Positions 18,919 to 39,209 of a stretch of 64,000 bases of DNA are shown here, piece by piece. A model generated the notes under the pieces. That model was not told the origin of the DNA, ran no database searches, and was given only the letters and a program-made list of their open reading frames with translations. The DNA comes from an uncultured Candidatus Saccharibacteria bacterium (GTDB lineage Bacteria > Patescibacteriota > Minisyncoccia > Minisyncoccales > Staskawiczbacteraceae). The DNA is taken from NCBI GenBank assembly GCA_964479955.1, contig CAYZNK010000001.1, positions 219,824 through 283,823 on the forward strand. Reading direction: 5' to 3'. A program made the translations under genes and the position numbers. Numbering within the stretch: the stretch's first letter is position 1; the number at the start of each line of letters is the position of its first letter.

Positions 18919-20580
18919 ATGATTAAAAAAATTTTAAATTCTCAGACAAAAAGCATAAGTTCGGCATCCTTAATTTTAGCCGTCTCATATTTTTTGAGCG
19001 CTGTTTTGGGATTGTTAAGAGACAGGTTACTGGCGGGGACTTTTGGGGCAGGAAACGAACTGGATGTTTATTATACTGCTTTTACGGTACCCGATTTTAT
19101 TGCTTTGATTCTAATTTTTGGGGCAATCAGTGCGGCGGTAATTCCTATTTTTAGCGAATATTTGATAAAAGACCAAAAATCAGCATGGAAGTATATTTCA
19201 ACTTTTTTGAATATTTTTCTGGGGTTTTTAATTGCGGTCTGTGGAATTTTGATGTTTTTTACTCCTGCGATTATTTCTGTAATAGCGCCAGGATTTTCAG
19301 GAGAAAAAAAGGAAATGGCTATTTTGCTGATGAGGATTATGTTCTTAAGCCCCATAATTTTAGGGGCTTCAAATATGATAAGTGGAGTTTTGCAAGTTTT
19401 TCATAGGTTTTTGATTACAGCTTTGGCTCCCTTAATGTATAATATCGGAATAATATCTGGTATTTTATTTTTTGTCCCCAAGATAGGATTATCTGGTCTT
19501 GCGTGGGGAGTTGTTTTTGGAGGAGTTTTGCATTTGGCGGTGCAATTGCCTGCATTTTTTATTTCGGGGTTTAGATATCAGTTTAATTTTAATTACAAAA
19601 ATCCCGGAGTTGTAAAAACAGTGAAATTGATGGCGCCGAGGTCTCTGGGCTTGGGGGCGGGACAGTTAAATACAATTGCAACAACTGCGATTGCTTCAAC
19701 CTTAATGGCCGGGTCAATTGCTGTTTTTAATTTAGCAAATAATTTGTCGTCAATTTTTGTAAATGCTGTTGCAGTTTCTATTTCAACCGCCGCTTTTCCC
19801 TCCATGTCAATGAATTTTATTAAAAATGAGGGGGAAGAATTCTTAAGGAAATTTTCGGGAATTTTAAGGCAAATATTATTTTTGACTATTCCTATAAGCT
19901 TGCTTGTGCTGGTTTTAAGAGCCCAGATTGTAAGGGTAATTTTGGGAGCAGGAAATTTTGGCTGGGCGGATACAAAACTTACAACTGCATGCCTTGGGAT
20001 TTTGGCATTGAACTTGATTGCCCAGGCCTTAATTTTATTTCTGTCAAAGACTTTTTATGCCGCCCATAATACTAAAATTCCGGCGTTAATCAGCGCAGGA
20101 ACAGTTGCGGTTAATGTTGCTTTGAGCCTGTTTTTAGTTTTTGTGATAAAATTTTCTCCGGACTTTTCAAATTTTTTAAAGCATATTTTCAGGCTGAACG
20201 GAACGGAAAACATTGGGGTTGTGGGATTGTCTTTGGCATATTCAATAACGGCTGTTTTGGAAAGCCTTTTTCTTTTGTATTTGTTTTATAAAAATTTTTT
20301 GATGAAAAACAGTCCTAAAAAGAGAGTAAAGGAAATTTTAGATTCTGTAAGTAGGATTTTAATTGCAAGTGTTTTTATGTTTGCTGTTTCATTTTCAATA
20401 AGGCAAATTTTTGGCTCGTTTATAAGTCTGCAAAATTTTTGGGGAGTATTTTTGCAATTGGTTTTATCGGGCACAGCAGGAATTGCAGTTTATATATTTG
20501 TCTCTTATTTATTAAAATCGTCAGAATTAGAAACTATTAGAAGTTCCATTATTAAAAAATTTTTATATCCATCCAAATAA
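18919..20580 (+). CDS. murJ: Lipid II flippase MurJ (MviN)
   Basis: 553 aa polytopic protein. N-terminal LLRDRLLAGTFGAGNELDVYYTAFTVP is typical of MurJ. Confidence 0.85.
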   Translation: MIKKILNSQTKSISSASLILAVSYFLSAVLGLLRDRLLAGTFGAGNELDVYYTAFTVPDFIALILIFGAISAAVIPIFSEYLIKDQKSAWKYISTFLNIFLGFLIAVCGILMFFTPAIISVIAPGFSGEKKEMAILLMRIMFLSPIILGASNMISGVLQVFHRFLITALAPLMYNIGIISGILFFVPKIGLSGLAWGVVFGGVLHLAVQLPAFFISGFRYQFNFNYKNPGVVKTVKLMAPRSLGLGAGQLNTIATTAIASTLMAGSIAVFNLANNLSSIFVNAVAVSISTAAFPSMSMNFIKNEGEEFLRKFSGILRQILFLTIPISLLVLVLRAQIVRVILGAGNFGWADTKLTTACLGILALNLIAQALILFLSKTFYAAHNTKIPALISAGTVAVNVALSLFLVFVIKFSPDFSNFLKHIFRLNGTENIGVVGLSLAYSITAVLESLFLLYLFYKNFLMKNSPKKRVKEILDSVSRILIASVFMFAVSFSIRQIFGSFISLQNFWGVFLQLVLSGTAGIAVYIFVSYLLKSSELETIRSSIIKKFLYPSK

Positions 20581-22563: not shown

Positions 22564-24090
22564 ATGATGAATAAAAAAATATTTGTGTTGGTGATATTTT
22601 GCGTTATTTTATTTTCCTCTGCTGCAAGCGTCGGAGCTATGACAGAAGCAGAAAGGCAGGCGCTTATTGCGCAGATACAAGCGCAGATTACGGCGCTTCA
22701 GTCGCAATTGTATGCAATGCTTCAGGCTCAGCAATCAGGAACCTCAAGTACAGCCGGTTCTTCATGGTGCCACACTTTTACAACCACGCTGCTTTTGGGC
22801 AGTTCCGGGCAAGAAGTTTCTTTTTTGCAGACAGCCATGCAGAAAGAAGGCTATATTATTTCTTCTTCTGAAATCCAGACATCATATTTTGGCAGTTCAA
22901 CAAAACAAGCAGTTGTAAGTTTTCAAGAAAAATATAGGGGTGATATTTTAACTCCTTATGGTTTGACATATGGCACAGGGAACGCGGCGCTTTTAACCAG
23001 GACAAAATTAAACGAGCTATACGGATGTACTGGCTCAACATCATCAATAACAACCTGTACCCCTTATTGGTCATGTGGGGACTGGGGAGTTTGTTCTAAT
23101 AATCAACGCACACGAACTTGCTATGACACCAATTACTGCGGAACAACCACCAACAAACCCGCAACAACTCAGTCTTGTTCATCAACTACATGTAGTCCCG
23201 TTTGGTCTTGCAGTTCATGGGGCACCTGTTCTAATAATCAACGCACACGAACTTGCTATGATACAAACTACTGCGGAACAACCACCAACAAACCCGCAAC
23301 AACTCAGTCTTGTTCATCAACTACATGTAGTCCCGTTTGGTCTTGCAGTTCATGGGGCACCTGTTCTAACAACCAACAAACCAGAACTTGCTATGACACC
23401 AATTACTGCGGAACAACCACCAACAAACCAGCAACAACTCAATCGTGTTCTTCAACCTGCACTCCCAGTTGGTCGTGCGGAGATTGGAGTACTTGTGTAA
23501 ATGGACAGCAAACAAAAACTTGCTATGATACAAACTACTGCGGAACAACCACCAACAAACCCGCAACAACTCAGTCTTGTTCATCAACTACATGTAGTCC
23601 CGTTTGGTCTTGCAGTTCATGGGGCACCTGTTCTAACAACCAACAAACCAGAACTTGCTATGACACCAATTATTGTGGCACAACAACAGGAAAGCCAGCA
23701 GAAACAGAATATTGTTGTGTTCCTAATTGGACTTGTGGGAATTGGAGTTTTTATTGTGTAAATAAACAACGCACCCGAACTTGTTATGACACCAATTATT
23801 GTGGCACAACAACAGGAAAGCCAGCAGAAACAGAATATTGCTGTGAAGCAGAATGGCAATGTGAAGATTGGGGGGATTGCACAAACAATCTACATTGGAG
23901 AATGTGTTGGGATATAAACAATTGTGAGCCATATATTATTGAAGAAGAGTATTGTTGTGAACCAAATTGGGAATGCACAAATTGGGGGGTTTGTAGATTT
24001 TATACACAAACTAGAATTTGCGAAGATACTAATATGTGTAATGACAACGTAAATAAACCAGAAGAATCTCAATATTGTGATGTTCCATAA
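22564..24090 (+). CDS. Secreted protein: signal peptide, coiled-coil, peptidoglycan-binding-like domain and 8 Cys/Trp-rich repeats
   Basis: Signal peptide. [19 protein letters not shown]...[13 protein letters not shown] resembles PG_binding_1. Then 8 repeats of C-x-P-x-W-x-C-x2-W-x2-C-x6-R-x-C-x-D-x-N-x-C. Confidence 0.8.
23056..24087 (+). repeat. Tandem array of about 123-bp coding repeats (8 units; the inner units are near-identical at DNA level)
   Basis: By eye, an exact 77-nt string (cccgcaacaactcag...cacctgttctaa) occurs three times, starting at 23157, near 23294 and near 23560. Confidence 0.85.
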
Positions 24091-24207: not shown

Positions 24208-24278
24208 CGCGCCTTGGAGGAGTAGTACCTCGACAGTCTCATAAGCTGTAGGCCCCCGTGCAATTCGGGGAGGCGCAA
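24208..24278 (+). tRNA. Non-canonical tRNA-like gene, anticodon CAT, initiator-like C1:A72 mismatch
   Basis: Hand fold: CGCGCCT TG GAGG AGTAGTA CCTC G ACAGT CTCATAA GCTGT AGGC CCCCG TGCAATT CGGGG AGGCGCA A. The D-loop lacks GG, the T-loop is TGCAATT, and the variable loop is 4 nt. Confidence 0.5.
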
Positions 24279-24343
24279 CAAAAATTGTAATATTTAAAAA
24301 CCCACGGTATAATTAATAATTATATTATTATCGTGGGTTTTAA

Positions 24344-25024
24344 ATGGCTAAATCAAAACAAAAAATAAAAGCGCTTGAGTTAAGAGAGAAAAAAGGAGAA
24401 AGCATTAAACAAATAGCGCAAAAATTAGGAGTTTCTAAAAGCACCGTAAGTTTATGGTGTAGAGATATTATACTGACTGAGAAACAAATCAAAAATTTAC
24501 ATAATAGAATGGTTTCTTTAAGTTATGTTGGACGAATGAAGGGTGCGCGTGCAAATCATGAAAAAAGAATAAACAGAATAAAAGAACAAAATGAAAAAGG
24601 AATAGAAGTTATAGGAAAATTATCAGAAAGGGATTTGCTTGTAGCTTCGGTGGCGTTATATTGGGGTGAGGGATGCAAAAAAAGCCGACAGTTGTCCATA
24701 AATAATTCTGACCCTGAGATGTTAAAATTTATAATGGCAGTTTTTAGAAAGGTGTGGAAAATTAAAGAAAACAGATTCGCGCCATATGTTGGTATAAATA
24801 TTATCCATAAAAAAAGAGACGAAGAAATTAGAGAATACTGGTCTAAAATAATAAAAATTCCCAAAGAGCAATTTCGAAAGACTATTTTTATAAAAGCGAA
24901 AAATAAAAAAGTCTATAAAAATTTAAACAGCCATTATGGCACTCTCACAATAAGAATTTTAAAACCAATGGAAATATATTATCAGATGATGGGTTTAATA
25001 AATGGAATGGTAAATGGAATATAA
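24344..25024 (+). CDS. HTH plus LAGLIDADG-like (putative homing-endonuclease-like) protein
   Basis: N-terminal HTH ESIKQIAQKLGVSKSTVSLWC. Core ASVALYWGEGCKK...NNSDPEMLKFIMAVF...EIREYWSKIIKIP...HYGTLTIRI resembles degenerate LAGLIDADG folds. Lies between tRNA genes. Confidence 0.45.
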   Translation: MAKSKQKIKALELREKKGESIKQIAQKLGVSKSTVSLWCRDIILTEKQIKNLHNRMVSLSYVGRMKGARANHEKRINRIKEQNEKGIEVIGKLSERDLLVASVALYWGEGCKKSRQLSINNSDPEMLKFIMAVFRKVWKIKENRFAPYVGINIIHKKRDEEIREYWSKIIKIPKEQFRKTIFIKAKNKKVYKNLNSHYGTLTIRILKPMEIYYQMMGLINGMVNGI

Positions 25025-25029
25025 TAAAT

Positions 25030-25103
25030 GCCGGAGTAGCTCAGCGGTAGAGCAATGCTTTCATAAGGCAGAGGTTTCGTGGGTTCGAATCCCACCTCCG
25101 GCA
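25030..25103 (+). tRNA. tRNA-Met family (anticodon CAT; elongator Met or Ile2 not distinguishable)
   Basis: Acceptor GCCGGAG/CTCCGGC, D-arm GCTC-AGCGGTA-GAGC, anticodon loop TTCATAA, T-arm GTGGG-TTCGAAT-CCCAC. My hand fold leaves an A:G mismatch closing the anticodon stem and an unusually long 7-nt variable region. Confidence 0.75.
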
Positions 25104-25140
25104 CTGGATTATTTAAGAATATAAATTATAATTCAACTAT

Positions 25141-25219
25141 GCGGGCATGGTGTAGCCTGGTCCAACACGCCTCCCTGTCACGGAGGAGATCGGGGGTTCA
25201 AATCCCCCTGCCCGCGCCA
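25141..25219 (+). tRNA. tRNA-Asp (GTC), CCA encoded
   Basis: Acceptor GCGGGCA/TGCCCGC, anticodon stem-loop CCTCC-CTGTCAC-GGAGG, T-arm GGGGG-TTCAAAT-CCCCC, and 3' GCCA. Confidence 0.9.
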
Positions 25220-26824
25220 TCGTGTACTAACAGAGCCCAAAAGCTCTGTTTTGTTCTTAAAATCGCCTATTTTCGTTGGTTCCAACCTTAAATAACTGGC
25301 TTCTATCGCCGGGTACTCTTTTATTATCGGCACAAACCACTCATTTGGCTCAATAATCAGTTTTTCCCCTCTAATAACTGGGTTTTGGCCCAAAGTTCTT
25401 AGTATTTCTCGCCTCAGTTCCAACCCTCCGGTAGCAAATGCCTTCCTGGCGTAGGCGGCGAACTTGAATGTCCTCTCTGTCAGCTCTAGCCACTTTTCAA
25501 CCTTCGATTCGCTTTCTCCTAATTTTTGCTTGATTTGGGAGATTTTTGTTTGAATATCCTTTTTCTCTTTTAAAAATGTTTCGTCGTCAATAAGTAGGCG
25601 ATACCTCATTTTAGTTAGTTCATCTAATTCAGTTTGTGCTTGTGCCATTGCTTTCTGCTGGGTTTCGTAAATTGTGTTTTTATCTGCGTTCTGCTGATCC
25701 TTGCCTTCTTTCAAAATTTCTATTGCCCAATGCAGGAACTCCGGGAGTATTGTGTACTTCTCAATTTCTTGCTCAATTTGCAGTTCCAATTTTTCCTTCG
25801 GCACAGTTTTCTTTTGCGAGCATTTAACACCCTTTCTCCTTCGCGTGCAGAAATAATATGTGAAGTTCTTTATTTTGTTTGTGCTTTTAATAAACTTCTC
25901 TTTCTCAACTGCCGTATAAAGACAGCCACACTCTGCGCAATGTATTGCGCCAGTAAATGCAAAGTGGTGCGTTTTTGGTCTTTGCTTTCCTTTACGGCCC
26001 AAGATTTTTTGAGCCACATCATATTCCTCCAGCGTTATCATTCTTTTATGTTTTCCTTCATACAATGTTTTATCTCTGCCCCAATAAAAAATCCCAGCAT
26101 AAAATGGGTTTGTAAAAATTTTGTATATTGCAGTTCTCGATAATGGTCCTCCGCCTTTTCTTTTTGTTTTCCTAACCCTATATCCCCATTGATTGTTTGC
26201 TATGTTCAAAATCTGCGGAGTTGAATAGCTCCCGGTTAGCAGCAAGTCCCACATTTTACGGATCAGCGGAAATCTTTCCTCATCTACCAATATGTCATTT
26301 TCGCCCCGTTCTTTTATTTTGCTATTCAAATATCCTTCCGGGGCTGATCCGGGTCGCCAGCCTTTTATAAGCTTACTGTCGGTTCCGCGTTTCACCGCCT
26401 TTCTTAAGTCCAGTATGTATTGGTTTGCCATTCCGGTCTCCACATTGAATAACAACACATTATCGTCTGGTAAATGTTCTCTTTCAATTGTTTGTATGGA
26501 TTTTAGAATTCCTTGTTGCAACATCCAGCTCAATCTCCCAGAGTCAATTGGATTTCGCGACAACCTGTTTATATGCCAGCATAATATCCCATCGGCTTCG
26601 CGTTCCTCAATCCGCCTTAGCATCTCATCAAATAGCGGGCGATTGTTCGGCTTCTTTGCAGACTTTGCCTCTGTATAGATTTTTTCAACCTTCAGGCCCA
26701 AGTCTGCAGCCAGCAGTTTTAATCTGTTCAGCTGGTCATCAATTGACTGCACCTGCCGGTCCTCTGACTCTGAGGATTTTCTGGCATATATAAAATATTT
26801 TAATCTGTTGCTTGTTTGGTTCAT
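25178..26824 (-). CDS. Large serine recombinase (integrase)
   Basis: N-terminal resolvase domain YARKSSESEDRQVQSIDDQ...RLSRN, recombinase domain, zinc ribbon CAECG...YYFCTRRRKGVKC, and a coiled-coil. The last 14 codons and the stop lie inside tRNA-Asp. Confidence 0.9.
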   Translation of the reverse strand: MNQTSNRLKYFIYARKSSESEDRQVQSIDDQLNRLKLLAADLGLKVEKIYTEAKSAKKPNNRPLFDEMLRRIEEREADGILCWHINRLSRNPIDSGRLSWMLQQGILKSIQTIEREHLPDDNVLLFNVETGMANQYILDLRKAVKRGTDSKLIKGWRPGSAPEGYLNSKIKERGENDILVDEERFPLIRKMWDLLLTGSYSTPQILNIANNQWGYRVRKTKRKGGGPLSRTAIYKIFTNPFYAGIFYWGRDKTLYEGKHKRMITLEEYDVAQKILGRKGKQRPKTHHFAFTGAIHCAECGCLYTAVEKEKFIKSTNKIKNFTYYFCTRRRKGVKCSQKKTVPKEKLELQIEQEIEKYTILPEFLHWAIEILKEGKDQQNADKNTIYETQQKAMAQAQTELDELTKMRYRLLIDDETFLKEKKDIQTKISQIKQKLGESESKVEKWLELTERTFKFAAYARKAFATGGLELRREILRTLGQNPVIRGEKLIIEPNEWFVPIIKEYPAIEASYLRLEPTKIGDFKNKTELLGSVSTRWRGQGDLNPRSPP

Positions 26825-26898: not shown

Positions 26899-27498
26899 CT
26901 ACTGCCAGTTGATATCTTCTTTTTTGCCTGCAAATTCCAGCCATTGTCCGCCGTCTTTTGGAATGCAGTATTTTCTCCCAGACTTTTCAACTATTCTCAT
27001 GCCCCTATAATAAGGTTTTAATTTTTTAGAAGTATCCCTTTCTTTTATCTCCTTATTATTTAACTCCTTACTATTGGAAGTCCTTGTGGTGAACTTCATA
27101 AGTTTATCCTGTAAACTAGTGAAGTCTATGTGGCAAACTTCACTATACTCTTTCAAAGTTTCAGGATTTATCGGCTTCCAATGTTTTTTATGATGTAGTA
27201 CATATCTGTTGTTGGCTGTTTTGCCTACTCTTTGTTTCCGGATTATTCCCCAGAATTCCAGCCTTTTTATCCCGTCTATTATTTTACTTCGCGATATCGC
27301 CAATTCCTCCCGGATAAAATTTATAGACGGCCAGCTCTTTTGCAGTTTGTTGGCATGCCTGCAGAGGGAGTTATAAACTCCTACGGCGTAGATTTCTAGG
27401 AATCTTGCATAGCCGTTAAGAAATTTGTCATCGGTTATATACTGTTCTTTTTGCCGAAGATCTCTTATTTCAAATTTTTCCTCGTTATTTTCCATCAT
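26899..27498 (-). CDS. Winged-helix replication-initiator-like (DnaD/phage Rep N-terminal-like) protein
   Basis: WPSINFIREELAISRSKIIDGIKRLEFWGIIRKQR is typical of MGE wHTH replication or regulatory proteins. Confidence 0.45.
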   Translation of the reverse strand: MMENNEEKFEIRDLRQKEQYITDDKFLNGYARFLEIYAVGVYNSLCRHANKLQKSWPSINFIREELAISRSKIIDGIKRLEFWGIIRKQRVGKTANNRYVLHHKKHWKPINPETLKEYSEVCHIDFTSLQDKLMKFTTRTSNSKELNNKEIKERDTSKKLKPYYRGMRIVEKSGRKYCIPKDGGQWLEFAGKKEDINWQ

Positions 27499-27760
27499 GT
27501 TTGTGCAACTCTTGCCACCGCTTTTGATTGCGGGTATTTAGCATTTTTAAATTTGATACAGGAACAACTTTGAGAACACGGTGGGGAGCTAGTGTTCTTA
27601 TGCCTTTTTGGTTTTTGCCTTTTTTATTTAAGCAGAATGGACAGCGATTTTCGTCTGGCAGTTTATTTCTAAGTTCTGCCTCTTTGTCTAACGGACAAAC
27701 ATTTATTGGGCAGAAATTAAATCGCGGGCAATCTTCAAAATAGTTTATTGTTTGGTTCAT
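27485..27760 (-). CDS. Small Cys-rich hypothetical protein
   Basis: CPRFNFCPINVCP...CPFC. Overlaps both neighbouring genes within the operon. Confidence 0.4.
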   Translation of the reverse strand: MNQTINYFEDCPRFNFCPINVCPLDKEAELRNKLPDENRCPFCLNKKGKNQKGIRTLAPHRVLKVVPVSNLKMLNTRNQKRWQELHKHDGK

Positions 27761-27954
27761 AAATTTATGTCGCCAGTTTCTTGGCGGCGTTTTTGTAAAT
27801 TATTATATTCTTGTTCAGTCATTGGTTTGTAAACCAGCTCAACCATGCGAAGTAGGGAAGCTGCTTTTTCAAAAGCTTCCTCCCGGCTAATCTCCTTACC
27901 GAAGCGATTCTTGTAAATTTCCATAAAAGATATGATTTGTTTATCGGTCAGCAT
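27757..27954 (-). CDS. Small hypothetical protein (65 aa)
   Basis: ORF with 4-nt and 14-nt overlaps with its neighbours. Confidence 0.4.
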   Translation of the reverse strand: MLTDKQIISFMEIYKNRFGKEISREEAFEKAASLLRMVELVYKPMTEQEYNNLQKRRQETGDINL

Positions 27955-28198
27955 GATAAAGCCGCGTTTTTAAAGTTCTTAGACAATCTAAAAAAGCAAC
28001 GGGTTCCACAAGGAGCTCGCGCCTCCAATATCTTTGAATTAAATCGTCTAAGTTTTTATCGCGTTGGAATAAAAAGGTTGCTTTATTATTTTCCCAATTT
28101 ATTGCTTCAATTGGCCGGTTAAAAAAGCATAAGCAATTCGCCAAATTCAAATCAGATGTTTCAAAAAAGTCATTTTCTTTTAGTAATCCTGATTTCAT
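27941..28198 (-). CDS. Small MGE-associated protein (DUF5659-like by recollection)
   Basis: ETSDLNLANCLCFFNRPIEAINWENNKATFLFQRD...LKTRLY matches the pattern I recall for this small phage/plasmid family. Confidence 0.4.
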   Translation of the reverse strand: MKSGLLKENDFFETSDLNLANCLCFFNRPIEAINWENNKATFLFQRDKNLDDLIQRYWRRELLVEPVAFLDCLRTLKTRLYHADR

Positions 28199-28289
28199 AT
28201 TTTTAGAAATTTTAATAATAAAAAAACTATATTCTGGTTTGAATATAGTCCTTTTTTCGGAACGTGTTTGAATTTTAGGCTAAATTAGG

Positions 28290-29081
28290 CTATTCTGGGT
28301 GATTTTTTATGTGGGCCATTTCTAATTGCTTCATGAGTAGAGCAATATTTATTCCTTTGTTTTGCAAATATTCTTTCGTGATTTTATCTCCGGCATATGT
28401 AATCATTCCTTTTTTGCTCCTTTTCGGAAAAAATGCTTTAAGAATTTCTTTTGTGAACCCAAGCTGATAAAGTATATCGGCGATACTTCCGCCGCCAATT
28501 TCTTCTTTAAGAAAATTTGGCAAATCACTTTTCTTTATTGGAGTGTTTGCATTTTTACTTCTTATAAATTCTAGGGTTTCAAAATTAGTTCCCACTGCAT
28601 GCGGTTTTGAAAGGAGGAAATTATTTATCCAGATTTCCCTGTCTTTGACTGTTAGCTGAAAGGTTTCCGGCAATTCAGTTTTGACATTTTTAGTTGCAGC
28701 TATTTTTTCTATTTCTTGTCTTAATTCTTTGATCTCATTAATCAATTTATCTATTTTTTCTGTTTCTGTTTTGGCAACAACTATCTGCTCTGGATTGCCT
28801 GATTTTTGTATTTCAATGTTTTTTTGACGGACATCTCCCAAAGAAAATTCAATTTTTTGAAGCGTTGGGATAATTGTTTTTAAAGTTTCGCCCGCAGGAA
28901 TTAGATAAGTCTTAGCTGAATCGTTCAAATCTTCGGCGTATTTTTTCATCCTTTGCATCTGCGGTTCTAAACTAGCAAGACTGTCAACCAAAAAATCTAA
29001 ATTTGGGATTTGGCAAAAACGGCCATAGAGTTTCAAGCTCTTATCAATATCTTCCAAAATACGCTTATGTATTTCCAGCAT
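28290..29081 (-). CDS. Hypothetical coiled-coil protein (263 aa)
   Basis: AGAGGA SD-like sequence upstream. No family recognised. Confidence 0.45.
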   Translation of the reverse strand: MLEIHKRILEDIDKSLKLYGRFCQIPNLDFLVDSLASLEPQMQRMKKYAEDLNDSAKTYLIPAGETLKTIIPTLQKIEFSLGDVRQKNIEIQKSGNPEQIVVAKTETEKIDKLINEIKELRQEIEKIAATKNVKTELPETFQLTVKDREIWINNFLLSKPHAVGTNFETLEFIRSKNANTPIKKSDLPNFLKEEIGGGSIADILYQLGFTKEILKAFFPKRSKKGMITYAGDKITKEYLQNKGINIALLMKQLEMAHIKNHPE

Positions 29082-29237
29082 AATTTTAGTAATCCTCTAT
29101 AGTAATTTTCGCTTTTATACTGCCACTTTTCAGATATTTTTTCAAGGAAAAGGTGATTAATCATAAAAACCCCTAAAAGTACCCCTTTTTACACCCTTTG
29201 GCAATCTATTTGGAGATTTTTAGGATCTCCCAAAAAA

Positions 29238-29350
29238 CCCGCTGTTTTGCCCTGTTTTGCCGAACAAAAGTTAGTCGTTTTGGTCGTTTATCAAGCTAAA
29301 AGACGAGCAAACGCCCGTCTTTCTCCCAAACCCCTCACAAAACCCCTAAG
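29238..29350. repeat. Non-coding module, copy A (iteron-like TAGTCGTT/TGGTCGTT, GCCGAACAAAAG, GCTGTTTTGCC x2, CTCACAAAACCCC)
   Basis: Shares several blocks with 38666-38850: ttagtcgttttggtcgttt vs ttagtcgttattggtcgttt, gccgaacaaaag, (c)gctgtttt repeats, and cacaaaac(a)ccc. Confidence 0.7.
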
Positions 29351-29364
29351 GATTGCTCAAAACC

Positions 29365-29901
29365 CTATAGTCTTTCATCTATTAGATCCCATTTATTCAG
29401 ATATTTAGAAATATCCCAACCATTAAATCCTTTCCCCGGAGGAATCGCTACTGTACGAACATTGCTATCGTTATGTATTTGCCCTTTTTTGCCGAGTGCT
29501 TTCATCCACATGGAATGGGCTTCCTTAACATTTTTAGACAACTCAGAGGATGGGATAATATAGTATTCAAAATTTTGAGTCGAATCCATTATCGGGATAC
29601 CGCCTAAGATCCAAAAGAAATTATTTCCGTAATCTATCTCGGCTTTTCTGCCAACGCTGCAAGTTTTATCTCCTGGTCTAAAAGTTTTTACTTGAATGTG
29701 TACAAATTTCGTACCGCCTTTATTACTACATAAAATATCAGTATTAGGACAATTTCCCATAGTTACAACTGCTACCAAACCACGACGACATAATTCCCCT
29801 GCAATAAAAAATTGACTGGCACTTCCACGATGAGTTTTGTCTGTTTTCTCGATTGTATGTTCCTCCATGTCTTTATTTTTGTTTTTATTTTTTACCAACA
29901 A
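29365..29901 (-). CDS. PD-(D/E)xK-like nuclease-fold protein (178 aa)
   Basis: GSASQFFIAGELCRRGLVAVVTMGNCPNTDILCSNKGGTKFVHIQVKT fits an E...D...(Q/E)xK restriction-endonuclease-like core (Hjc/YraN-like topology). Confidence 0.45.
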   Translation of the reverse strand: MLVKNKNKNKDMEEHTIEKTDKTHRGSASQFFIAGELCRRGLVAVVTMGNCPNTDILCSNKGGTKFVHIQVKTFRPGDKTCSVGRKAEIDYGNNFFWILGGIPIMDSTQNFEYYIIPSSELSKNVKEAHSMWMKALGKKGQIHNDSNVRTVAIPPGKGFNGWDISKYLNKWDLIDERL

Positions 29902-30869
29902 ATGTTAACGTTTGTTTTGATTTGTTTCTTTAAATAATCTTTAACATCGTATATTCCTCCAACCTGATCGATTAAGCCGTTATCTTTTGCCATTTGACCA
30001 AGCATTGATGAACCGTCAGCCAACTCTGTTACCTTCTTTATGTCCATATGTCTATTTTCGGAAACATATTTGATAAAATTATTGTAGAGGACTTTTACAT
30101 CTCTCATAAAAAGATCTCCCTCTTCTTGAGTTAGTATTTTATCTGGATTTCCGGCATCCTTAAATTTACCTTCGCTTAATTCGTAAAATGTAAGCCCGTC
30201 AGTTGTATTTTTATCAGAGTTTCCAACATAAGACATCGTAACTCCAATACTCCCGACATCTGAATTTGCGGAAGCAATAATATATTTAGCACCGGAGGCG
30301 GCAAGATAAGCAGCTGAATTTCCTCTTTCCCTGATTAAGGCAACTGTTGGCTTTTTTAAGTGTTTTAAAGCTTCAGCAATCTCCCATCCTCCAACTGGAG
30401 AACCACCTGACGAATCGACTTGAAGCAATATAGCTTTTATTGAATTATTCTTGTTTGCTTTCTCTATCGCGGCAGTTATATCTTCCGCAGAAGCAACATC
30501 TTTGCTCGATTGACCGCTACCATCACTTGCTGCATTTTTGTATGTGTAAAGCCCGCCATAGAGTTTAATTCCTTGTACATTGCAATCACCATAAGGCAGA
30601 ACGGGTATTTTTGAATCCGTCAAAATCAATAGCTGCATTAAAAATCCTGTAAGCAAAAATGCTAATCCCAGCAAAGAAATCTTTTTATCCTTCAAAAAGC
30701 CCGCCCTCGTATAAAAATGCCTCTGATCATTACTGACCTCTTTATTCTTATCTAAATCTATTAGTAAATCATCCTCCAACGCTCGTCTTGTTTTTAAAAA
30801 TGGAAAAGCCAGTATCATCGTTCCAGTAATACTGAATAACAAACCTAAAATTTGAATAAAAAATATCAT
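29892..30869 (-). CDS. Two-TM N-terminal domain fused to an SppA/S49 serine peptidase domain
   Basis: VDSSGGSPVGG, KPTVALIRERGNSAAYLAASGAKYIIASANSDVGSIGV (S49 signature context). Two N-terminal hydrophobic helices. Confidence 0.75.
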   Translation of the reverse strand: MIFFIQILGLLFSITGTMILAFPFLKTRRALEDDLLIDLDKNKEVSNDQRHFYTRAGFLKDKKISLLGLAFLLTGFLMQLLILTDSKIPVLPYGDCNVQGIKLYGGLYTYKNAASDGSGQSSKDVASAEDITAAIEKANKNNSIKAILLQVDSSGGSPVGGWEIAEALKHLKKPTVALIRERGNSAAYLAASGAKYIIASANSDVGSIGVTMSYVGNSDKNTTDGLTFYELSEGKFKDAGNPDKILTQEEGDLFMRDVKVLYNNFIKYVSENRHMDIKKVTELADGSSMLGQMAKDNGLIDQVGGIYDVKDYLKKQIKTNVNICW

Positions 30870-30872
30870 ATT

Positions 30873-31184
30873 TTAATATTTAAAATCCTCTTCCTCAAAT
30901 TTATCTCTTATTATTTGTTTTCTGAGTCTTAAAACTTCGAATTCTCTTTTGAGTTGATTGTTTTTATCTCTTTCCATCATAAGCATACCCTCCAATGCTT
31001 CCGTGGAATATTTCACGTCCTCACGGACTTCCTCGGTAATATCCTTCAGCTTAAAAAATAGTTTTTCTACTTTAATTTTAGCAGCCAAAAGTTCAATTTC
31101 TTCATCAGACTTTTTAATTTCAGCTTCCTTTTCTTTTAGCCGACTAATTGTATCGTCCAATAGTTGTTGTTTAATGTTTTCCAT
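30873..31184 (-). CDS. Small coiled-coil protein (103 aa)
   Basis: Highly charged heptad-like sequence. 3-nt and 5-nt gaps to its neighbours. Confidence 0.45.
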   Translation of the reverse strand: MENIKQQLLDDTISRLKEKEAEIKKSDEEIELLAAKIKVEKLFFKLKDITEEVREDVKYSTEALEGMLMMERDKNNQLKREFEVLRLRKQIIRDKFEEEDFKY

Positions 31185-31189
31185 ATTTT

Positions 31190-32272
31190 TTAATACTTTT
31201 CTAAAATTTTTATATAATTTGTTAACCTGTTCAAAAGTTCATCGTACGTAACAAAATTTATATTATTTAAGGAAAGGCACAAGAGTCGGAAGTCATCCCT
31301 CTCTTTTTGAGAATTAAGATTATTTGATCGACCAGCAAGAATTATTCCCCGAGGCCGCAAAACTTTTAAATTAATTTTAAATTTATCAAGTATATAGCCC
31401 CTCACAGCTGGTCCATTGTTGGTAATGTTTTCGATATAGTTCTCTACTTGAATTATGGCCCTTGAAATTTCTGAATCCCAAAAAAAGTTACCTCTTCCAG
31501 CATCCTCCTTAAGTAGCGGCGTAGTAGGTTTTTTAATCTCTAAAATATCGAGATAATTATCATGTGTAACTATGGAAAAATCAGGAAATTTTGTATTGCC
31601 AATACCAATGTTCATTTTTTCTATTGCGGATATATATCCCTGCTGAATTAAAAGTATGTTTTTCTTTATATATTTTTGCCAATACGTTTCTCCATACGTT
31701 CCTCCAATAGCCTTTTCTAAATCAGAAGATAATTCCTTTAATGATTTTATTTGCGCTTTGGCTTTTAAAAAATTTACAGCGCTCAGAGATTCCGAAGCGA
31801 TAAATTCGGGCAGAAACTTGTTTATTGAATCTCTATCTTCTGGTGAAAGTCGTGGTAAAATTTTCTGACCTAACAGATTGGAAATTGTGCCGGGTACGTA
31901 AACTGGAGTTTCTTCTTTTTCGAAAAAAGAAGGATAAACAAGCGCAAAATAATTTAAAATTATGTCGTTTTTTATATCTCTTGTTCTTTCCCAAAGCTCC
32001 CCATTAATCATTTTAAGCGTCTTTTGAGAAGTCCTTATGCGATGTATATTCCTTTCTAGTATTATAGAATCTGTTTCTTCAGTTATTATCCATTGAAACT
32101 TTTTGAATTTTCTTTTTAAAACTTCTAATATATGCTTACCGAAATTTATTCTTCCGTCCGTAGAAAGGCCTTTTGGCCTTTTGCCCTCATAATAAATCTT
32201 CGTGCCTTTCAGCGCATCACCATAACTCCTATTTTTTACAATTACATATTTCTTTTTTGCTATTCTCGCCAT
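31190..32272 (-). CDS. Shedu-like (DUF4263-type) PD-(D/E)xK nuclease
   Basis: C-terminal FPDFSIVTHDNYLDILEIKKP (D...ExK), SRAIIQVENY, RGIILAGRS and NINFVTYDELLNRL match the DUF4263/SduA pattern as I recall it. Confidence 0.6.
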   Translation of the reverse strand: MARIAKKKYVIVKNRSYGDALKGTKIYYEGKRPKGLSTDGRINFGKHILEVLKRKFKKFQWIITEETDSIILERNIHRIRTSQKTLKMINGELWERTRDIKNDIILNYFALVYPSFFEKEETPVYVPGTISNLLGQKILPRLSPEDRDSINKFLPEFIASESLSAVNFLKAKAQIKSLKELSSDLEKAIGGTYGETYWQKYIKKNILLIQQGYISAIEKMNIGIGNTKFPDFSIVTHDNYLDILEIKKPTTPLLKEDAGRGNFFWDSEISRAIIQVENYIENITNNGPAVRGYILDKFKINLKVLRPRGIILAGRSNNLNSQKERDDFRLLCLSLNNINFVTYDELLNRLTNYIKILEKY

Positions 32273-32283
32273 AATTTTTACTA

Positions 32284-32460
32284 CTAAAATTTTTCAACCT
32301 CTTTTTCAGCATTAGAACAGGCCGGGTAATTCCGACAAACAAGATTTTCAGTTGCTTTTTTTGCCGGCTCTCCTTCTCTTTTTAATCGTGCATATTGAGA
32401 AGGTTTCAGCGGCTCTCCGCATGTTTCACATTTTTCAATATCTTTATCTAAGGTTGCCAT
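32284..32460 (-). CDS. Zinc-ribbon mini-protein (58 aa; absent from the supplied ORF track, presumably because it is under 60 aa)
   Basis: Hand translation: MATLDKDIEKCETCGEPLKPSQYARLKREGEPAKKATENLVCRNYPACSNAEKEVEKF. Cys pairs CxxC and C-x5-C. Begins 1 nt after the methyltransferase stop. Confidence 0.45.
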   Translation of the reverse strand: MATLDKDIEKCETCGEPLKPSQYARLKREGEPAKKATENLVCRNYPACSNAEKEVEKF

Positions 32461-32461
32461 T

Positions 32462-34405
32462 TTATCTTTCGATTAATTTTTTTGTAGAATTTTCTACGAT
32501 TTCCACTTCTTTATCTGTAAGTCCATACAATTTATAAACTATTTGATCTATTTCATTCTCATACTCTTTAACTTTTTCCTGCTTTACAGGATTGTCCAAG
32601 TAATCTTGCGTTTTCGTAATCGCTAAAATTTTATCAACAAGTTCAATAAATGGTTTTTGTTTTGCTTCTGAAGCTTCTTTGATTGGTAATTTTTTAATAT
32701 GAGCTGGATAAATATCCAAACCAAAACTAAAAAACTTTTGGAATAACCACTTAAAAAGATTCGAGTTTATAAGTGATAATAAAAATAATAGATCATATTG
32801 CTTAGATAACTTGATTCTACCACCATTAATAATACTTTTAAGCTGGCTATACTTGTCTAGTGGAAGTGAGTAATATGGGATGATTACATACACTGTATTA
32901 TCGGCGTAAAGATTATCCTGATCGTAAAGAAAAGACAACCCATCCCTTCCAATTATTCTCTTGCCAATCAATTTGTGATTTTCAAACAACTCCTGATATC
33001 TTGGCTCCCTATGGACATCTGGCGTGAATTTCAAAAATAATGTTTTATTTACTCGCCATCTTGAAATATATTTTCCTTCTATGTATGGTTTTAAATTATT
33101 TGCCTTCTGTTTATAGATAAATTCATCTTTTTTAACGCCCTTTTCAGCGTTATGAAGAACCGCTCCATATATAACAAAGCATATCTCTGAAAGATTTATT
33201 GTGTCTTTATAAATTTTTCTTTGTAGATCTGATTCTTTTTTCCCGATATCCAATCTAAAATTCATATCCGGCAATTCCTTAAAAAAATTTTGCTTGATCG
33301 TTGAATACCTGCTCTCAGTATTTATAATCATCCCTAGTTCAGAATTATCGCCGTTTTTTAAATCTGAGTCATACAGATTTAGTAACTTCACTTCGTCATT
33401 GGACGTATTCTCGTTATTATCAACGATAGTTATTGCTGTATCTACGGTTGCTTCAAAAACCTTTAAATTAAAATTGATAATTCTTAGTAAATGTTTATGT
33501 AGTAAAATTTCTCTTATTTTAGATCCATATTTTTGGGAAAAATATTTATTGCTAGTAATAAAGCAAAGATTACCGCCCTTCTTTAGCAATTGCAGAGCTT
33601 TTTCGATAAAAATAATATAAATATCGTAATGAGCAGTTGGTGAGTGAAATTCTTTTTCATAAAAGGGTTTTAACTCTCCGGTCATGTTTTTTGATGACAA
33701 ATAAGGCGGATTCGCGATCACAATTCCGAACCCTTCTTTTATTCCAAACATCCATTCAGGATCAAACCAAGTTGATGCCTTGTGACCGAACGGATCCCAT
33801 GTCATCAAACTTCCTGTCAAATTTGCCATTCCTCCTCTCTTTTTTTCTATAACCTTCTCAAACATCCTTTTTTGCGCCTGGACAAACTGCAATTTTAATT
33901 TCTCTCTTTCTACTCCTGAAGCATTAAAAAACATCTCACGAAGTTCTTTAAGTTCACCTATTCCACTCTCGTCTTCAAATAAACCCTGCTGATTACTCGT
34001 CGACGGCTTTGGGAGACCAATTAAGCTATTTGCGGTTACAAATTTAAAGTCCAGATTTGGGAGTGGCTCTATCCCTCTGTTTTCCAAGTCATCATGGACG
34101 CTTTCATCAACGATTAAAGTTAAAAAACACCTCAACCTTGATATTTCTGTTGCGATTGGTTGAATGTCAACGCCATAAATATTTTTTCTTACAACTCCCA
34201 ATTTGCGAATATAATCAAAATTCTCGTTCTCGAATTCTCTTTTAATCACCCTTTTCATCTCAGGAGAAACGTTTTGGATTTGCTTTTGAAACCAAATCCT
34301 TCCATCAGCATCCACTTGCTGTAAAATGAAAACTATTTTCTGCAGCGCTCCAATTGGAAAAGCGCCCGAACCGCAGGCTGGGTCCAATATCTTCACACTC
34401 TCCAA
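32462..34405 (-). CDS. Eco57I/TaqI-like gamma-class N6-adenine DNA methyltransferase with a TaqI-like C-terminal specificity domain; N-terminally short (starts at motif I, TTG start only)
   Basis: Motif I ILDPACGSGAF, NIYGVDIQPIATEISRLRCFL, LPNLDFKFVTANSL, and motif IV FGIVIANPPYL. Confidence 0.85.
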   Translation of the reverse strand: MESVKILDPACGSGAFPIGALQKIVFILQQVDADGRIWFQKQIQNVSPEMKRVIKREFENENFDYIRKLGVVRKNIYGVDIQPIATEISRLRCFLTLIVDESVHDDLENRGIEPLPNLDFKFVTANSLIGLPKPSTSNQQGLFEDESGIGELKELREMFFNASGVEREKLKLQFVQAQKRMFEKVIEKKRGGMANLTGSLMTWDPFGHKASTWFDPEWMFGIKEGFGIVIANPPYLSSKNMTGELKPFYEKEFHSPTAHYDIYIIFIEKALQLLKKGGNLCFITSNKYFSQKYGSKIREILLHKHLLRIINFNLKVFEATVDTAITIVDNNENTSNDEVKLLNLYDSDLKNGDNSELGMIINTESRYSTIKQNFFKELPDMNFRLDIGKKESDLQRKIYKDTINLSEICFVIYGAVLHNAEKGVKKDEFIYKQKANNLKPYIEGKYISRWRVNKTLFLKFTPDVHREPRYQELFENHKLIGKRIIGRDGLSFLYDQDNLYADNTVYVIIPYYSLPLDKYSQLKSIINGGRIKLSKQYDLLFLLSLINSNLFKWLFQKFFSFGLDIYPAHIKKLPIKEASEAKQKPFIELVDKILAITKTQDYLDNPVKQEKVKEYENEIDQIVYKLYGLTDKEVEIVENSTKKLIER

Positions 34406-34797
34406 TGCATCGATAATTTTATTTTTGTATCTTCACTATAAGTATCTAGTTTTTTTTGCAGGGTTATAAATTCCTTTTCAATTTTAACAGGATCAATCGG
34501 TGTAATTTTTGCTTTTGTAATTAAAACAGCCACGGGATTAATATCCACGGCTATTGACGGTCGGCCCATTAATTTTGACTCGACAATTGTTGTTCCGCAG
34601 CCTCCGAACGGGTCAACTATAAAATCTCCCTCTCTCGTATATTTTTCGGCTAATCGAGAAACAATTTGAGGTATAAATTTCGCGGGATAGCGATGATATC
34701 CATGGGTAACATAGGCGGTGTCCTTTCTGGTTTTTTCGGAGAATGACCACGTCTGGTCGACTTTTGTGTTTGCAAATAATGTTTTTGTTGGGCTCAT
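34393..34797 (-). CDS. N-terminal fragment of a second DNA methyltransferase (motif X-like plus motif I only)
   Basis: HGYHRYPAKFIPQIV...DFIVDPFGGCGTTIVESKLMGRPSIAVDINPVAVLITKAK. No (D/N/S)PPY motif before the stop. 13-nt out-of-frame overlap with the next methyltransferase ORF. Confidence 0.55.
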   Translation of the reverse strand: MSPTKTLFANTKVDQTWSFSEKTRKDTAYVTHGYHRYPAKFIPQIVSRLAEKYTREGDFIVDPFGGCGTTIVESKLMGRPSIAVDINPVAVLITKAKITPIDPVKIEKEFITLQKKLDTYSEDTKIKLSMHWRV

Positions 34798-34855
34798 AAC
34801 TTTATTAACTTATTTTGCCTTTTTTTGGATAAAAATGCAACCTTATTTATATCTA

Positions 34856-34884
34856 TTGACTTTGGTAAACACGGGTGCTACACT
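34856..34884 (+). promoter_or_regulatory. Putative sigma-70 promoter of lexA (TTGACT-17-TACACT); would give a leaderless or near-leaderless mRNA
   Basis: The -10 element ends 9 nt before the ATG at 34894. No SD sequence is visible. Confidence 0.4.
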
Positions 34885-34893
34885 TAATATAAC

Positions 34894-35532
34894 ATGGAAA
34901 ACAAAAACAACCAACAAGAGTTATCCACAAACGAAAGGAAGGCGTTGCGCATTATACGCAATTGGTTTTTGCATAAAGGCAGAAACCCTTCTATTAGAGA
35001 ATTGACCAAAGAAATGGGTTTTGGCTCAACCAGGTCTTCTCTTTTATTGGTTAACAGGCTTATAGACAAAAAGATTCTTCTCCGAAAAGATGACGGGGGT
35101 TTAAGAATTTTAAGTAATTTTGGAGAGCACAGGTTTGCTGCCAAAACTGTTGATGTGCCTTTAGTCGGAGTCGTTTCTTGTGGCGCACCCATTTTTGCAG
35201 AAGAGAACATAGAAGCCCTTTATCCGGTTTCGACGACATTGGCTCACCCCGGCTCTCGTTATTTCCTTCTTCGTGCCACAGGAGACTCAATGAATAAAGC
35301 TGGAATAAATGATGGCGATTTAGTGCTGGTAAGGCAACAAGCCACGGCCGATGCGGGCCAGAAGGTAGTTGCGCTGATTGACGACGAAGCCACAGTAAAA
35401 ATTATTCGCCTTACTCCCGACGCTGTAATATTGGAGCCAAGATCAAGCAATAAAAACCACAAACCAATTATCCTTTCCAGAGATTTTCAAATTCAGGGAG
35501 TTGTAATCGCAACTGTCCCGATTAAACATTAA
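34894..35532 (+). CDS. lexA: LexA-family repressor (wHTH plus S24 autopeptidase)
   Basis: N-terminal LexA DNA-binding-like PSIRELTKEMGFGSTRSSLLLVNRLIDKKIL. Cleavage-site region VVSCGAP (Cys-Gly, as in UmuD). Catalytic GDSM and the Lys in EATVKII. Confidence 0.85.
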   Translation: MENKNNQQELSTNERKALRIIRNWFLHKGRNPSIRELTKEMGFGSTRSSLLLVNRLIDKKILLRKDDGGLRILSNFGEHRFAAKTVDVPLVGVVSCGAPIFAEENIEALYPVSTTLAHPGSRYFLLRATGDSMNKAGINDGDLVLVRQQATADAGQKVVALIDDEATVKIIRLTPDAVILEPRSSNKNHKPIILSRDFQIQGVVIATVPIKH

Positions 35533-35602
35533 TTAGGCAAATAAAATTACTATAATTATATCATTTAAATCAAGGAATTGAGCTGGGCATTTCCAAGTTT
35601 GA

Positions 35603-35845
35603 ATGAAAATTACAATGAAAAGAGATATCCATGTAGTTCCTTACAATGGAGATTGGGCTGTTAAAAAAGAAGGCGTAAAGCAGCCGGTGTCAGTGCATCA
35701 CAAAAAAGCCAATGCCGAAGTTAAAGCTATCCAACTTGGCAAACAAACTAAAGTCGAAGTCGTTTATCATGGCAAAGACGGCAAGATTCAGGATTCTGAT
35801 AGTTATGGCAAGGATCCGCATCCGCCAAAAGATAAAAAGTTTTAA
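35603..35845 (+). CDS. DUF2188-family small protein
   Basis: HVVPYNGDWAVKKEG...HGKDGKIQDSDSYGKDPHPPKDKK matches the DUF2188 pattern. Confidence 0.6.
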   Translation: MKITMKRDIHVVPYNGDWAVKKEGVKQPVSVHHKKANAEVKAIQLGKQTKVEVVYHGKDGKIQDSDSYGKDPHPPKDKKF

Positions 35846-35847
35846 TT

Positions 35848-37389: not shown

Positions 37390-37425
37390 AATTGTTTAAT
37401 TCTTGATTGGGCTTAAAACAAATTT

Positions 37426-38610: not shown

Positions 38611-38665
38611 GTTTTTCAAATAAGATTTCTTGTAATGTATGCATTACAAGAGCCTAAAAGGCGCC

Positions 38666-38850
38666 TCTCTCCCTTCACAAAACACCCACATTCTCTTGTA
38701 TTATACTTGCGCTAAAAGTTAGTCGTTATTGGTCGTTTGCCGAACAAAAGCTTTTGCAGCTCTTCAGCAGCTTTTACTGCAAACGTCAGCCGTTAAATCA
38801 CCGTTTTAAAACGGTGATTTCGCTGTTTTTCCGCTGTTTTAACAGCGGCG
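38666..38850. repeat. Non-coding module, copy B (homologous to 29238-29350), plus a perfect 26-nt palindrome
   Basis: ctctcccttcacaaaacaccc, gctaaaagttagtcgttattggtcgtttgccgaacaaaag, palindrome aaatcaccgttttaaaacggtgattt (38795-38820), and cgctgtttttccgctgttttaacagcgg. Confidence 0.7.
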
Positions 38851-39047
38851 GTCCATTCTCATTTAACTGTTAATCGACTGTTTTATCAGTCTAATTTTAA
38901 TTGTTGGGTTAATACTGCTTTTCCTGCATCGAATGGCTTTACTACCATATCCGCGTTTGTGCCTTCGGCGGTCAGGTTGGGGATTGAAATATACTCTTTT
39001 TGCCCTTGAATTATAGTCTTAACCTGCCACACTACGTTGCGCATTTT

Positions 39048-39088: not shown

Positions 39089-39209
39089 GACTTTTTCTAT
39101 TTTTTACGTTAATTTTGACTATCGTGTTTGTTTGCTTAAAAGAGTGCAAACTCTTTGGCAACCAAGCGGTTCGTTGACATTTTGTTCAATTAGAGAAAGA
39201 GAGATAGTC

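Follow-up and report, generated by a model that had tools for sequence, protein, structure and literature searches.

Large serine recombinases (LSRs) such as those of phiC31, Bxb1, A118/LI and TP901-1 act on short attachment (att) sites and leave no flanking duplication, and the characterised ones mostly target protein-coding or intergenic sites. Islands at tRNA and tmRNA genes are the hallmark of tyrosine integrases (Islander/TIGER type, P4-like): the tRNA is kept functional, the integrase gene adjoins it, cargo is carried, and a copy of the tRNA 3' end gives rise to direct repeats. An attP (the att site of the element) lying within the integrase gene is known from the fusellovirus SSV1, in which integration splits the integrase gene in two, and from the Myxococcus phage Mx8 (intP/intX), in which integration replaces the C-terminus; both enzymes are tyrosine recombinases. 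Here we describe an LSR gene that ends, antisense, inside a tRNA-Asp gene, in a stretch of 64,000 nucleotides (nt) from an uncultured Candidatus Saccharibacteria bacterium (the window). We consider it likely that this recombinase inserted an island at the extreme 3' end of tRNA-Asp, with an attP that overlaps the 3' end of the recombinase gene and with the tRNA 3' end as attB (the att site of the host).

The window protein has the same domain order (Resolvase, Recombinase, zinc ribbon) as the LSRs named above, and its family probably resembles them in short att sites and in the lack of a flanking duplication; as in phiC31, an outer motif lies 5 bp further out in the P-type arm than in the B-type arm. 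Unlike them, the family targets tRNA 3' ends and its attP would overlap the recombinase's own stop region, and the window protein matches the characterised ones only weakly in sequence. With the tyrosine-integrase islands the family has in common the tRNA site, the functional tRNA, the cargo and the position of the integrase; it differs in the enzyme, in restoring 2-5 nt without any repeat, and in bringing a new terminator inside the integrase open reading frame (ORF). The likeness to SSV1 and Mx8 is a functional analogy only: integration rewrites the integrase ORF, which in the window continues across the boundary at 25217/25218, but the enzyme is a serine recombinase, and all that is exchanged is the non-conserved tail that follows the last conserved codon. 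The tycheposons of Prochlorococcus are also small cargo-carrying integrative elements at tRNA genes, some of them with replication genes, and 27 of 937 carry an LSR (10.1101/2020.12.28.424599). Most tycheposons, however, use tyrosine recombinases and are flanked by partial tRNA copies, and no att anatomy is given for those with an LSR. A full-text literature search of incomplete coverage returned no description of an LSR family targeting tRNA 3' ends in Patescibacteria, no description of an antisense terminator embedded in an integrase gene, and nothing relevant on precedents for an attP within an integrase gene. The architecture described below is a coherent and widespread variation on integration by serine integrases, apparently one not described before.

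The recombinase gene and the tRNA occupy the following positions of the window:

25178 to 26824, minus strand: ORF of the LSR, 548 residues.
25141 to 25219, plus strand: tRNA-Asp (GTC), called by ARAGORN and by Rfam (66 bits), anticodon at 25177-25179.
25217 to 26824, minus strand: conserved recombinase body, residues 1-536, the last being an invariant Trp codon TGG (25217-25219).
25178 to 25216, minus strand: host-encoded C-terminal tail RGQGDLNPRSPP and TGA stop, antisense to tRNA-Asp positions 35-73.

Pfam places a resolvase-type catalytic domain (PF00239, E = 2e-17) at residues 11-147 of the recombinase (entry P0152 of our protein collection), followed by a Recombinase domain (PF07508, residues 183-276) and a zinc ribbon (PF13408 Zn_ribbon_recom, residues 290-354). 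Matches in the PDB were weak (E = 5e-7 to 5e-4), with the catalytic domain of TP901-1 integrase and, against residues 235-428, with the recombinase and zinc-ribbon domains (RD-ZD) of A118 integrase. Both W536 and the catalytic serine motif YARKSSESEDRQ are invariant across 25 recombinase sequences. Exact-sequence look-ups gave no match for the window recombinase, although it is entry P0152, or for two flanking host proteins.

The initial annotation, made from the letters of the window alone, had noted that the minus-strand ORF enters tRNA-Asp by 42 nt, and the coordinates agree with the ARAGORN and Rfam calls on this. It had also counted 14 terminal residues as antisense tRNA; the antisense relationship is exact, but it comprises 13 residues (WRGQGDLNPRSPP) plus the stop. 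These last 14 codons (TGG CGC GGG CAG GGG GAT TTG AAC CCC CGA TCT CCT CCG TGA) are the exact antisense of tRNA-Asp positions 76 to 35. That the TGA (25178-25180) overlaps the GTC anticodon (25177-25179) is read directly from the sequence, the stop covering anticodon bases 35-36 and base 37. The position of the stop follows from the register: the Trp codon, whose TGG is CCA read antisense, sets the frame, and in that frame U35-C36-A37 reads UGA on the opposite strand. Further tRNA-Asp insertions (P0004, P0005, P0028 and L071; L numbers are loci, P numbers protein entries) have the stop at the same position, whereas L081, L033 and L055 meet an earlier in-frame stop. We regard the overlap with the anticodon as an incidental by-product of the geometry, and a functional meaning is not supported. 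To our knowledge, genetic code 25 is limited to Gracilibacteria and Absconditabacteria; we give little weight to an alternative code here, and TGA read as a sense codon would merely extend the ORF further into the tRNA.

Comparison with related genomes that lack the element located the border between host and element DNA. Two features lie at this border:

25214 to 25217: core GCGC (tRNA positions 71-74), common to occupied and empty sites, which must contain the crossover dinucleotide.
25218 to 25262: P' arm of attL, element DNA corresponding to the last ~15 conserved recombinase codons, 100% identical to L081.

Loci L093-L095 represent a close relative (LepA 93% identical, ~6 kb upstream at 84-85% nt identity, gene order equal) whose tRNA-Asp is identical to that of the window. 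After ...CTGCCCGCGC they read ACGAAGCTTTTAG..., and the window reads CATCGTGTACTAAC...; homology between the window and L093 stops at 25217, so that the boundary is 25217/25218. A more distant empty site, L096, reads ...CCCGCGC/AGAAGAAAAAACCACC...GGTGGTTTTTT, that is, the tRNA and then a strong terminator of its own (-17.2 kcal/mol). The three sequences (slash at the border) are thus ...CCCGCGC/CATCGTG in the window, ...CCCGCGC/ACGAAGC in L093 and ...CCCGCGC/AGAAGAA in L096. Neither empty site encodes CCA, and both have their own downstream terminator. Locus L081, in turn, has a recombinase 96% identical to that of the window, a junction 100% identical through ...ACACGATGGCGCGGGC, an equal backbone and different cargo (an EcoRI-like gene); its element sits at the tRNA-Asp of another host, a tRNA that differs at many positions with compensatory changes in the stems. 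Occupied and empty sites share just the 4-nt core, and no flanking repeat was found. A long duplicate of the tRNA 3' segment is likewise lacking within the window, as the initial annotation had remarked and as expected for a serine integrase.

The empty sites and the L081 copy indicate that the element is mobile, that the body of the tRNA belongs to the host, and that the crossover lies within GCGC, tRNA positions 71-74; the exact crossover dinucleotide is probably positions 71-72. On this comparison, tRNA bases 25141-25217 can be assigned to the host and the CA at 25218-25219 to the element. The idea of an integrative element at tRNA-Asp, raised in the initial annotation, is borne out by the relatives without the element, which have different sequence 3' of the tRNA. 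Its placement of the crossover in the tRNA 3' half stands as far as the 3' part is concerned, although the site would be among the last bases of the tRNA (71-74), some 35 nt away from the anticodon. Its suggestion that the element supplies the 3' portion of the tRNA does not hold against the empty sites: the contribution would be just (C)CA, at most discriminator plus CCA, together with a terminator.

The overlap is a property of the whole recombinase family. Searches returned more than 3000 homologues of 62-96% identity over the full length, mostly from Patescibacteria metagenomes, and 548 loci among species-representative genomes. We surveyed 80 loci, each from another species, with ARAGORN run on every locus, and in 64 of the 80 an antisense tRNA overlaps the recombinase 3' end. 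Such a convergent overlap, in 64 of 80 species loci, is not due to chance. The 64 target tRNAs are of nine types (21 His, 11 Asn, 9 Trp, 9 Gln, 8 Ser, 3 Asp, 1 Lys, 1 Glu and 1 Ile), and the recombinase stop lies 10-315 nt into or beyond the tRNA (median 33 nt). Several of the other 16 loci are contig ends, and others have, at the same offset, a tRNA-like T arm that ARAGORN does not call.

Homologues are conserved through ...KTEALASVRARW and then diverge, with tails such as RRGWDSNPR, LPGLDSNQD and RGQGDLNPRSPP. The elements DSNP and DLNP are antisense readings of the T-loop sequences GGTTCGAATC and GGTTCAAATC, and DSNQ is also T-loop antisense. Had the terminal residues been common to homologues regardless of the tRNA, the initial annotation would have lost its ground; what they share ends at the Trp codon, beyond which the tail varies with the tRNA. 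An encoded CCA is present in 59/65 target tRNAs as against 28/104 other tRNAs of the same loci (Fisher p = 4e-17). The family is absent from IMG/VR, in which the best relatives have <= 37% identity.

Two groups of loci depart from the common pattern. In the subfamily of L055, L071 and L078 (tails ...ILSW or LLRG), the element side is AGTAAG or ACTAAG directly after the discriminator and C; no CCA is created at these junctions, hence the supply of CCA is not universal in the family. In L012, L016, L017 and L026, the DNA 3' of the recombinase (P0070, P0104, P0112) resembles the acceptor, T arm and 3' half of the anticodon stem of a tRNA-Asn, followed by conserved non-tRNA sequence, and the tails are long (...GYTYP..S...GLYH.P). 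ARAGORN calls no tRNA at these four loci, which may hold an intron-containing tRNA or a tRNA fragment.

Within the P' arm, a terminator scan flagged a further feature:

25229 to 25256, plus strand: intrinsic-terminator-like hairpin (25229-25250) and T-run, antisense within the recombinase codons KTELLGSV.

The hairpin folds at -10.8 kcal/mol (z = -3.65), and on the tRNA strand the element begins as CCA-N10-hairpin-TTTT. In the family the hairpin coincides with the conserved codons (K)TEALASV, yet its stems vary (CAGAGG/CCTCTG, CGAGCA/TGCTCG, CAGCCG/CGGCTG, TGGACG/GCGTCCA and others). Covariation was assessed on a gap-free alignment of 60 junctions, with 500 shuffles and slid controls. Pairing was found in 86% of cells, with double-sided changes in 7 of 8 pairs, and dropped to 29-52% in the slid controls. 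Compensatory cells numbered 63 against 18.8 in shuffles, none of the 500 shuffles reaching as high; shared ancestry inflates these counts, to the detriment of our reading, and the slid controls and the asymmetry between strands are the stronger arguments. The asymmetry consists of 53 G.U against 10 A.C combinations and of a T-run that follows the stem on the tRNA strand only. The G.U excess favours an RNA of tRNA sense, because G.U pairs can pair only there. We conclude that the hairpin is probably a replacement terminator for a tRNA whose native terminator the element displaces.

In a minority of the homologues the Trp codon is not followed by a tRNA. Their tails share the pattern W-x7-R-[TI] (for example WRGIVNDVRTII and WLRIVNDVRTIF); all 11 distinct non-tRNA tails have R-[TI] at codons 8-9 after W. 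Single clusters at 90% identity contain recombinases with at least three different tRNA-derived tails as well as a non-tRNA tail, and the DNA forms diverge directly after TGGCGG: L083 continues with AGGAGGTGGGATTCGAACC (tRNA-Ser), L082, L084 and L085 with TGTATTCTGAATACAGCTCGAACG, and L097 with AACATCGTGGACAATGTTAGAAC. The initial annotation had proposed that the C-terminus of the integrase depends on the junction; recombinases at least 90% identical that carry different tails show this for relatives of the window element, not for the element itself.

In the non-tRNA arms of L013, L040, L044, L082 and L097, a T-loop-like motif, T[CTA]G[AC]A[CT], starts 20 nt after TGG, and L098 has a variant (CAGAAC) at the same distance; the distance from TGG to the start of the T-loop motif is 15 nt in 46/46 tRNA arms. 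In the phiC31 synaptic complex, the zinc-ribbon domain (ZD) is 5 bp closer to the centre at attB than at attP (10.1101/2025.05.02.651858). The outward shift of 5 bp, tested on the arms of relatives, matches this geometry of attP versus attB, and the R-T conserved in non-tRNA tails can be explained by the same DNA motif read as codons. In L040 the junction has dyad symmetry, ACACGAT-GGCG/GGGC-ATCGTGA, centred at tRNA positions 71/72, and L040, L044 and L097 have ATCGTG-N8-TAGAAC in common, dyad-symmetric with P'. Replication genes lie beside recombinases with such tails (a rolling-circle Rep in L097, a Toprim primase in L082), and the tail peptides are homologous between unrelated samples, as in P0120 and P0142. 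On account of the 5-bp shift, the dyad symmetry of L040 and the neighbouring Rep and primase genes, we infer that the non-tRNA junctions are P'/P, of attP type, and that the tRNA provides the B arm.

A metagenome scan found the P arm of L082 type in four kinds of junction, all at an identical GCGG. In two of them the partner is a recombinase gene, joined at its 3' end: that of cluster 1, and a second LSR (34% identical) that itself ends in tRNA-Trp. In the other two the partner is host DNA, namely the start codon of an ORF and a terminator. In L088, where attL, attR and P'/P are all present, attB was reconstructed as tRNA-Trp ...CCCCGC/ATG..., without CCA and with core CCGC.

Several candidates at these junctions were tried and rejected. 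Rfam finds nothing there, so that non-tRNA arms are not taken for another structured RNA gene; the contig breaks of L082 and L084, k = 141 nt after TGG, are explained equally well by a P arm repeated in other contexts of that community as by coexistence of attP and attR; and the 21 kb covered at L013, L040 and L044 contain neither a second copy nor long direct repeats that would speak for a tandem array. Two arrangements were also observed beside them. In L088 (2745-3790; also in L086, L087, L090 and L091), the P arm occurs twice, inverted, ~0.9 kb apart, around an ORF of 127 residues, and the inner of the two is fused to 99 nt that duplicate, in inverted orientation, the 3' terminus of the neighbouring LSR gene (509 residues, ending in tRNA-Trp); this geometry would allow an inversion that swaps the LSR tail, and the orientation is equal in all five contigs. 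L013 has two full-length LOOT RNA (RF03000) copies, at 4931-5051 and 19790-19909 (minus), on the same strand and 14.9 kb apart, which bracket the recombinase with the P-type junction and could mark the ends of a larger unit.

From these comparisons the following course of integration can be proposed. The last ~15 conserved codons (...KTEALASVRARW) would constitute the P' arm, and the crossover would take place 1-5 nt beyond the invariant Trp codon, further codons coming from whatever DNA is joined. On the host side, the B arm of attB would be formed by the acceptor 3' strand and the T arm, which would put the T loop where a zinc-ribbon-domain contact is expected in attB. Integration would cut within tRNA positions 71-74 and replace the native 3' flank and terminator of the tRNA with element DNA: (C)CA, a spacer of ~10 nt, and a hairpin with a U-run as terminator. 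At the same time the recombinase tail encoded by the P arm would give way to an arbitrary tRNA-antisense peptide up to the first in-frame stop, which in the window would be a tail of 12 residues closed by UGA, the complement of U35-C36-A37. The tRNA-derived tail is probably neutral in function; the heterogeneity of the integrated tails (10-315 nt of overlap) argues against a specific function.

Alternatives bear on different parts of this proposal. That a resident recombinase merely abuts a tRNA, as an ordinary, vertically inherited overlap with no mobility, has practically no probability in our judgement: beyond the compactness of these genomes nothing favours it, and it is refuted by the empty sites in close relatives and by the near-identical element in the different host of L081, with the nine types of tRNA used, the cargo that differs between copies and the GC skew inverted across the island all standing against it as well. 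Rather than ending the tRNA transcript, the hairpin might serve the recombinase, either as a DNA palindrome that the enzyme recognises or by stabilising its mRNA at the 3' end. It does lie within the P' arm, ~12-33 nt from the core, where the recombinase must bind, and its fold is just as good on the recombinase strand (-12.4 kcal/mol). We nevertheless think this improbable, as the G.U excess shows that pairing is maintained in RNA of tRNA sense, the stem varies freely with compensation, unlike a protein recognition motif, the T-run is present on the tRNA strand only, and the native terminator seen at empty sites is displaced by integration. The non-tRNA junctions, for their part, could be secondary chromosomal sites or other rearrangements rather than attP, in which case the unintegrated form would be uncharacterised. 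Against that explanation, which we rate as unlikely, every non-tRNA arm keeps the motif at the P-type spacing of 20 nt, those of L040, L044 and L097 carry the sequence dyad-symmetric with P', contigs with P-type tails carry a Rep or primase gene, and the tail peptides recur across unrelated samples. Several observations speak for it, and they weigh against our interpretation of the junctions as attP. No closed circular contig with such a recombinase was recovered. The P-type junctions of L013, L040 and L044 lie in contigs of 0.6-0.76 Mb with defence cargo on both sides and, being inside contigs of near-genome size, are not excised circles; they may represent longer arrays or homologous recombination between related elements. 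The P arm of L082 differs from that of L097 despite the same P' arms, and is common to an unrelated LSR element and adjoined to host genes, a sign of mosaicism or of recombination off the usual pathway. Other points weigh against the proposal as a whole. The P' arm has no mirror of the P arm at the expected distance, and the B' arms have no conserved motif. Furthermore, neither attR nor attP of the window's own element was found by any search of the window: there is no inverted or direct copy of the P' arm and, in the 64 kb, no second copy of any tRNA-Asp segment; a six-frame search for the P-arm-tail peptide motif, regular expressions of core, spacer and motif, and BLAST of five P arms gave no attR; the consensus ATCGTG-N8-TAGAAC with 3 mismatches gave 23 matches against 36 expected; the B' sequences of L093 and L096 are absent; and tblastn of the tails gave only noise. 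Scans of viral contigs found neither P-side sequence nor the P' end of the window.

A different question, raised in the initial annotation with regard to stability or directionality, is whether the exchange of tails acts as a functional switch, the P-arm tail being needed for integration or controlling stability or directionality, and the tRNA tail together with convergent transcription silencing the integrase. Tails differ systematically by type of junction within 90% clusters, the non-tRNA tails have W-x7-R-T in common, and in the integrated state the recombinase and tRNA genes are convergent and overlapping, with the tRNA terminator inside the recombinase gene. Such a switch nevertheless seems to us rather unlikely: the P arm's DNA motif can account for R-T, and outside it these tails are not conserved; the integrated tails vary widely (some run beyond the tRNA), which would be unexpected for a tuned degron or inhibitor; and W536 is the last conserved residue whatever the form. 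State-dependent control through convergent tRNA transcription into the recombinase 3' end would be a plausible other route. More comprehensive, and doubtful as a whole although somewhat less so than the switch just described, is the notion of a Patescibacteria-wide clade with an attB of T arm and acceptor, a T-loop mimic shifted by 5 bp in attP, and codons in triple use, in which integration acts as a state sensor that shuts the integrase down. The last ~15 codons would then serve as protein C-terminus, as P' arm and as antisense CCA plus terminator, and the shutdown would come from the swap of tails together with convergent tRNA transcription over the gene's 3' end.

Returning to the insertion at tRNA-Asp, the window carries a genomic island of at least 9.6 kb whose cargo includes defence genes; the host chromosome is Staskawiczbacteria-like (Patescibacteria), as judged from LepA homologues. 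The block from 25.2 to 34.8 kb stands out by its inverted GC skew and by genes that all run on the minus strand, the remainder of the window being otherwise plus-strand. Its parts beyond the recombinase are:

26899 to 27954, minus strand: element backbone, with an HTH_36 protein (26899-27498; Pfam) and small ORFs at 27485-27760 and 27757-27954.
27941 to 34797, minus strand: variable or cargo part of the island (Pfam).
34798 to 41727: zone expected to hold the right end (attR), by synteny with L096.

The backbone is shared with L081 at ~89% nt identity and in equal gene order. Cargo genes comprise a DUF5659-like ORF, an ORF of 263 residues, an S49 peptidase, Shedu SduA, an Eco57I-type methylase and an N6_N4 methylase fragment, and resemble those typical of defence islands. 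Pfam identifies the serine type as the sole recombinase of the island, with no tyrosine recombinase. After the minus-strand block follow plus-strand genes (LexA-like, Schlafen/AlbA_2 and purH). In L096 the host gene RsgA (window 41728-42747) is only 1.5 kb from tRNA-Asp, and by synteny with this locus the right border of the island falls between 34.8 and 41.7 kb.

Some further observations concern the island and its surroundings. The N6_N4 methylase fragment (34393-34797, minus strand; 134 residues) has 79% nt identity to part of a complete restriction-modification methylase of L096 (7186-7534), and looks like a remnant adjoining the Eco57I-type methylase gene. Within 38611-42000 a 390-nt hairpin-rich non-coding spacer precedes purH, and the GC content is 0.42-0.43 across 38-42 kb against ~0.35 in the rest of the window; purH and a methyltransferase may also be acquired DNA, given the short distance between RsgA and tRNA-Asp in L096. 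A local GC peak of 0.49, against ~0.35 elsewhere, is found at 56001-58000. On the other side of the island (24208-25104), a helix-turn-helix (HTH) ORF of 226 residues (24344-25024) lies between two tRNA-Met genes, the first of which (24208-24279) is called by ARAGORN and not reported by Rfam at the gathering threshold. The same slot holds a GIY-YIG ORF of 84 residues in L093-95, and in L096 the two tRNAs are just 18 nt apart; the interval is a second variable slot, possibly for homing-endonuclease-like insertions. Upstream of it (22564-24090), a Cys-rich protein of 508 residues with a signal-peptide-like N-terminus contains tandem repeats of ~135 nt (45 residues) in two families, and it is in this repeat region that divergence from L093 is greatest.

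Sequence alone has served here to define how att sites are organised in a very large family of Patescibacteria integrases. For annotation, it means that the C-terminal tails of these recombinases in databases are junction artefacts, and that the CCA encoded on target tRNAs is element-derived. A stretch that is at once protein C-terminus, recombination half-site and antisense terminator with compensatory changes would be a natural triple-use sequence. Serine integrases are prized tools of genome engineering, and an attB at tRNA 3' ends, with at least nine tRNA types used, would give landing sites in almost any genome. Patescibacteria have tiny genomes and almost no known mobile-element biology; since these elements carry defence cargo (Shedu, restriction-modification, Schlafen-like), they are probably a main route of defence-gene exchange in these bacteria.

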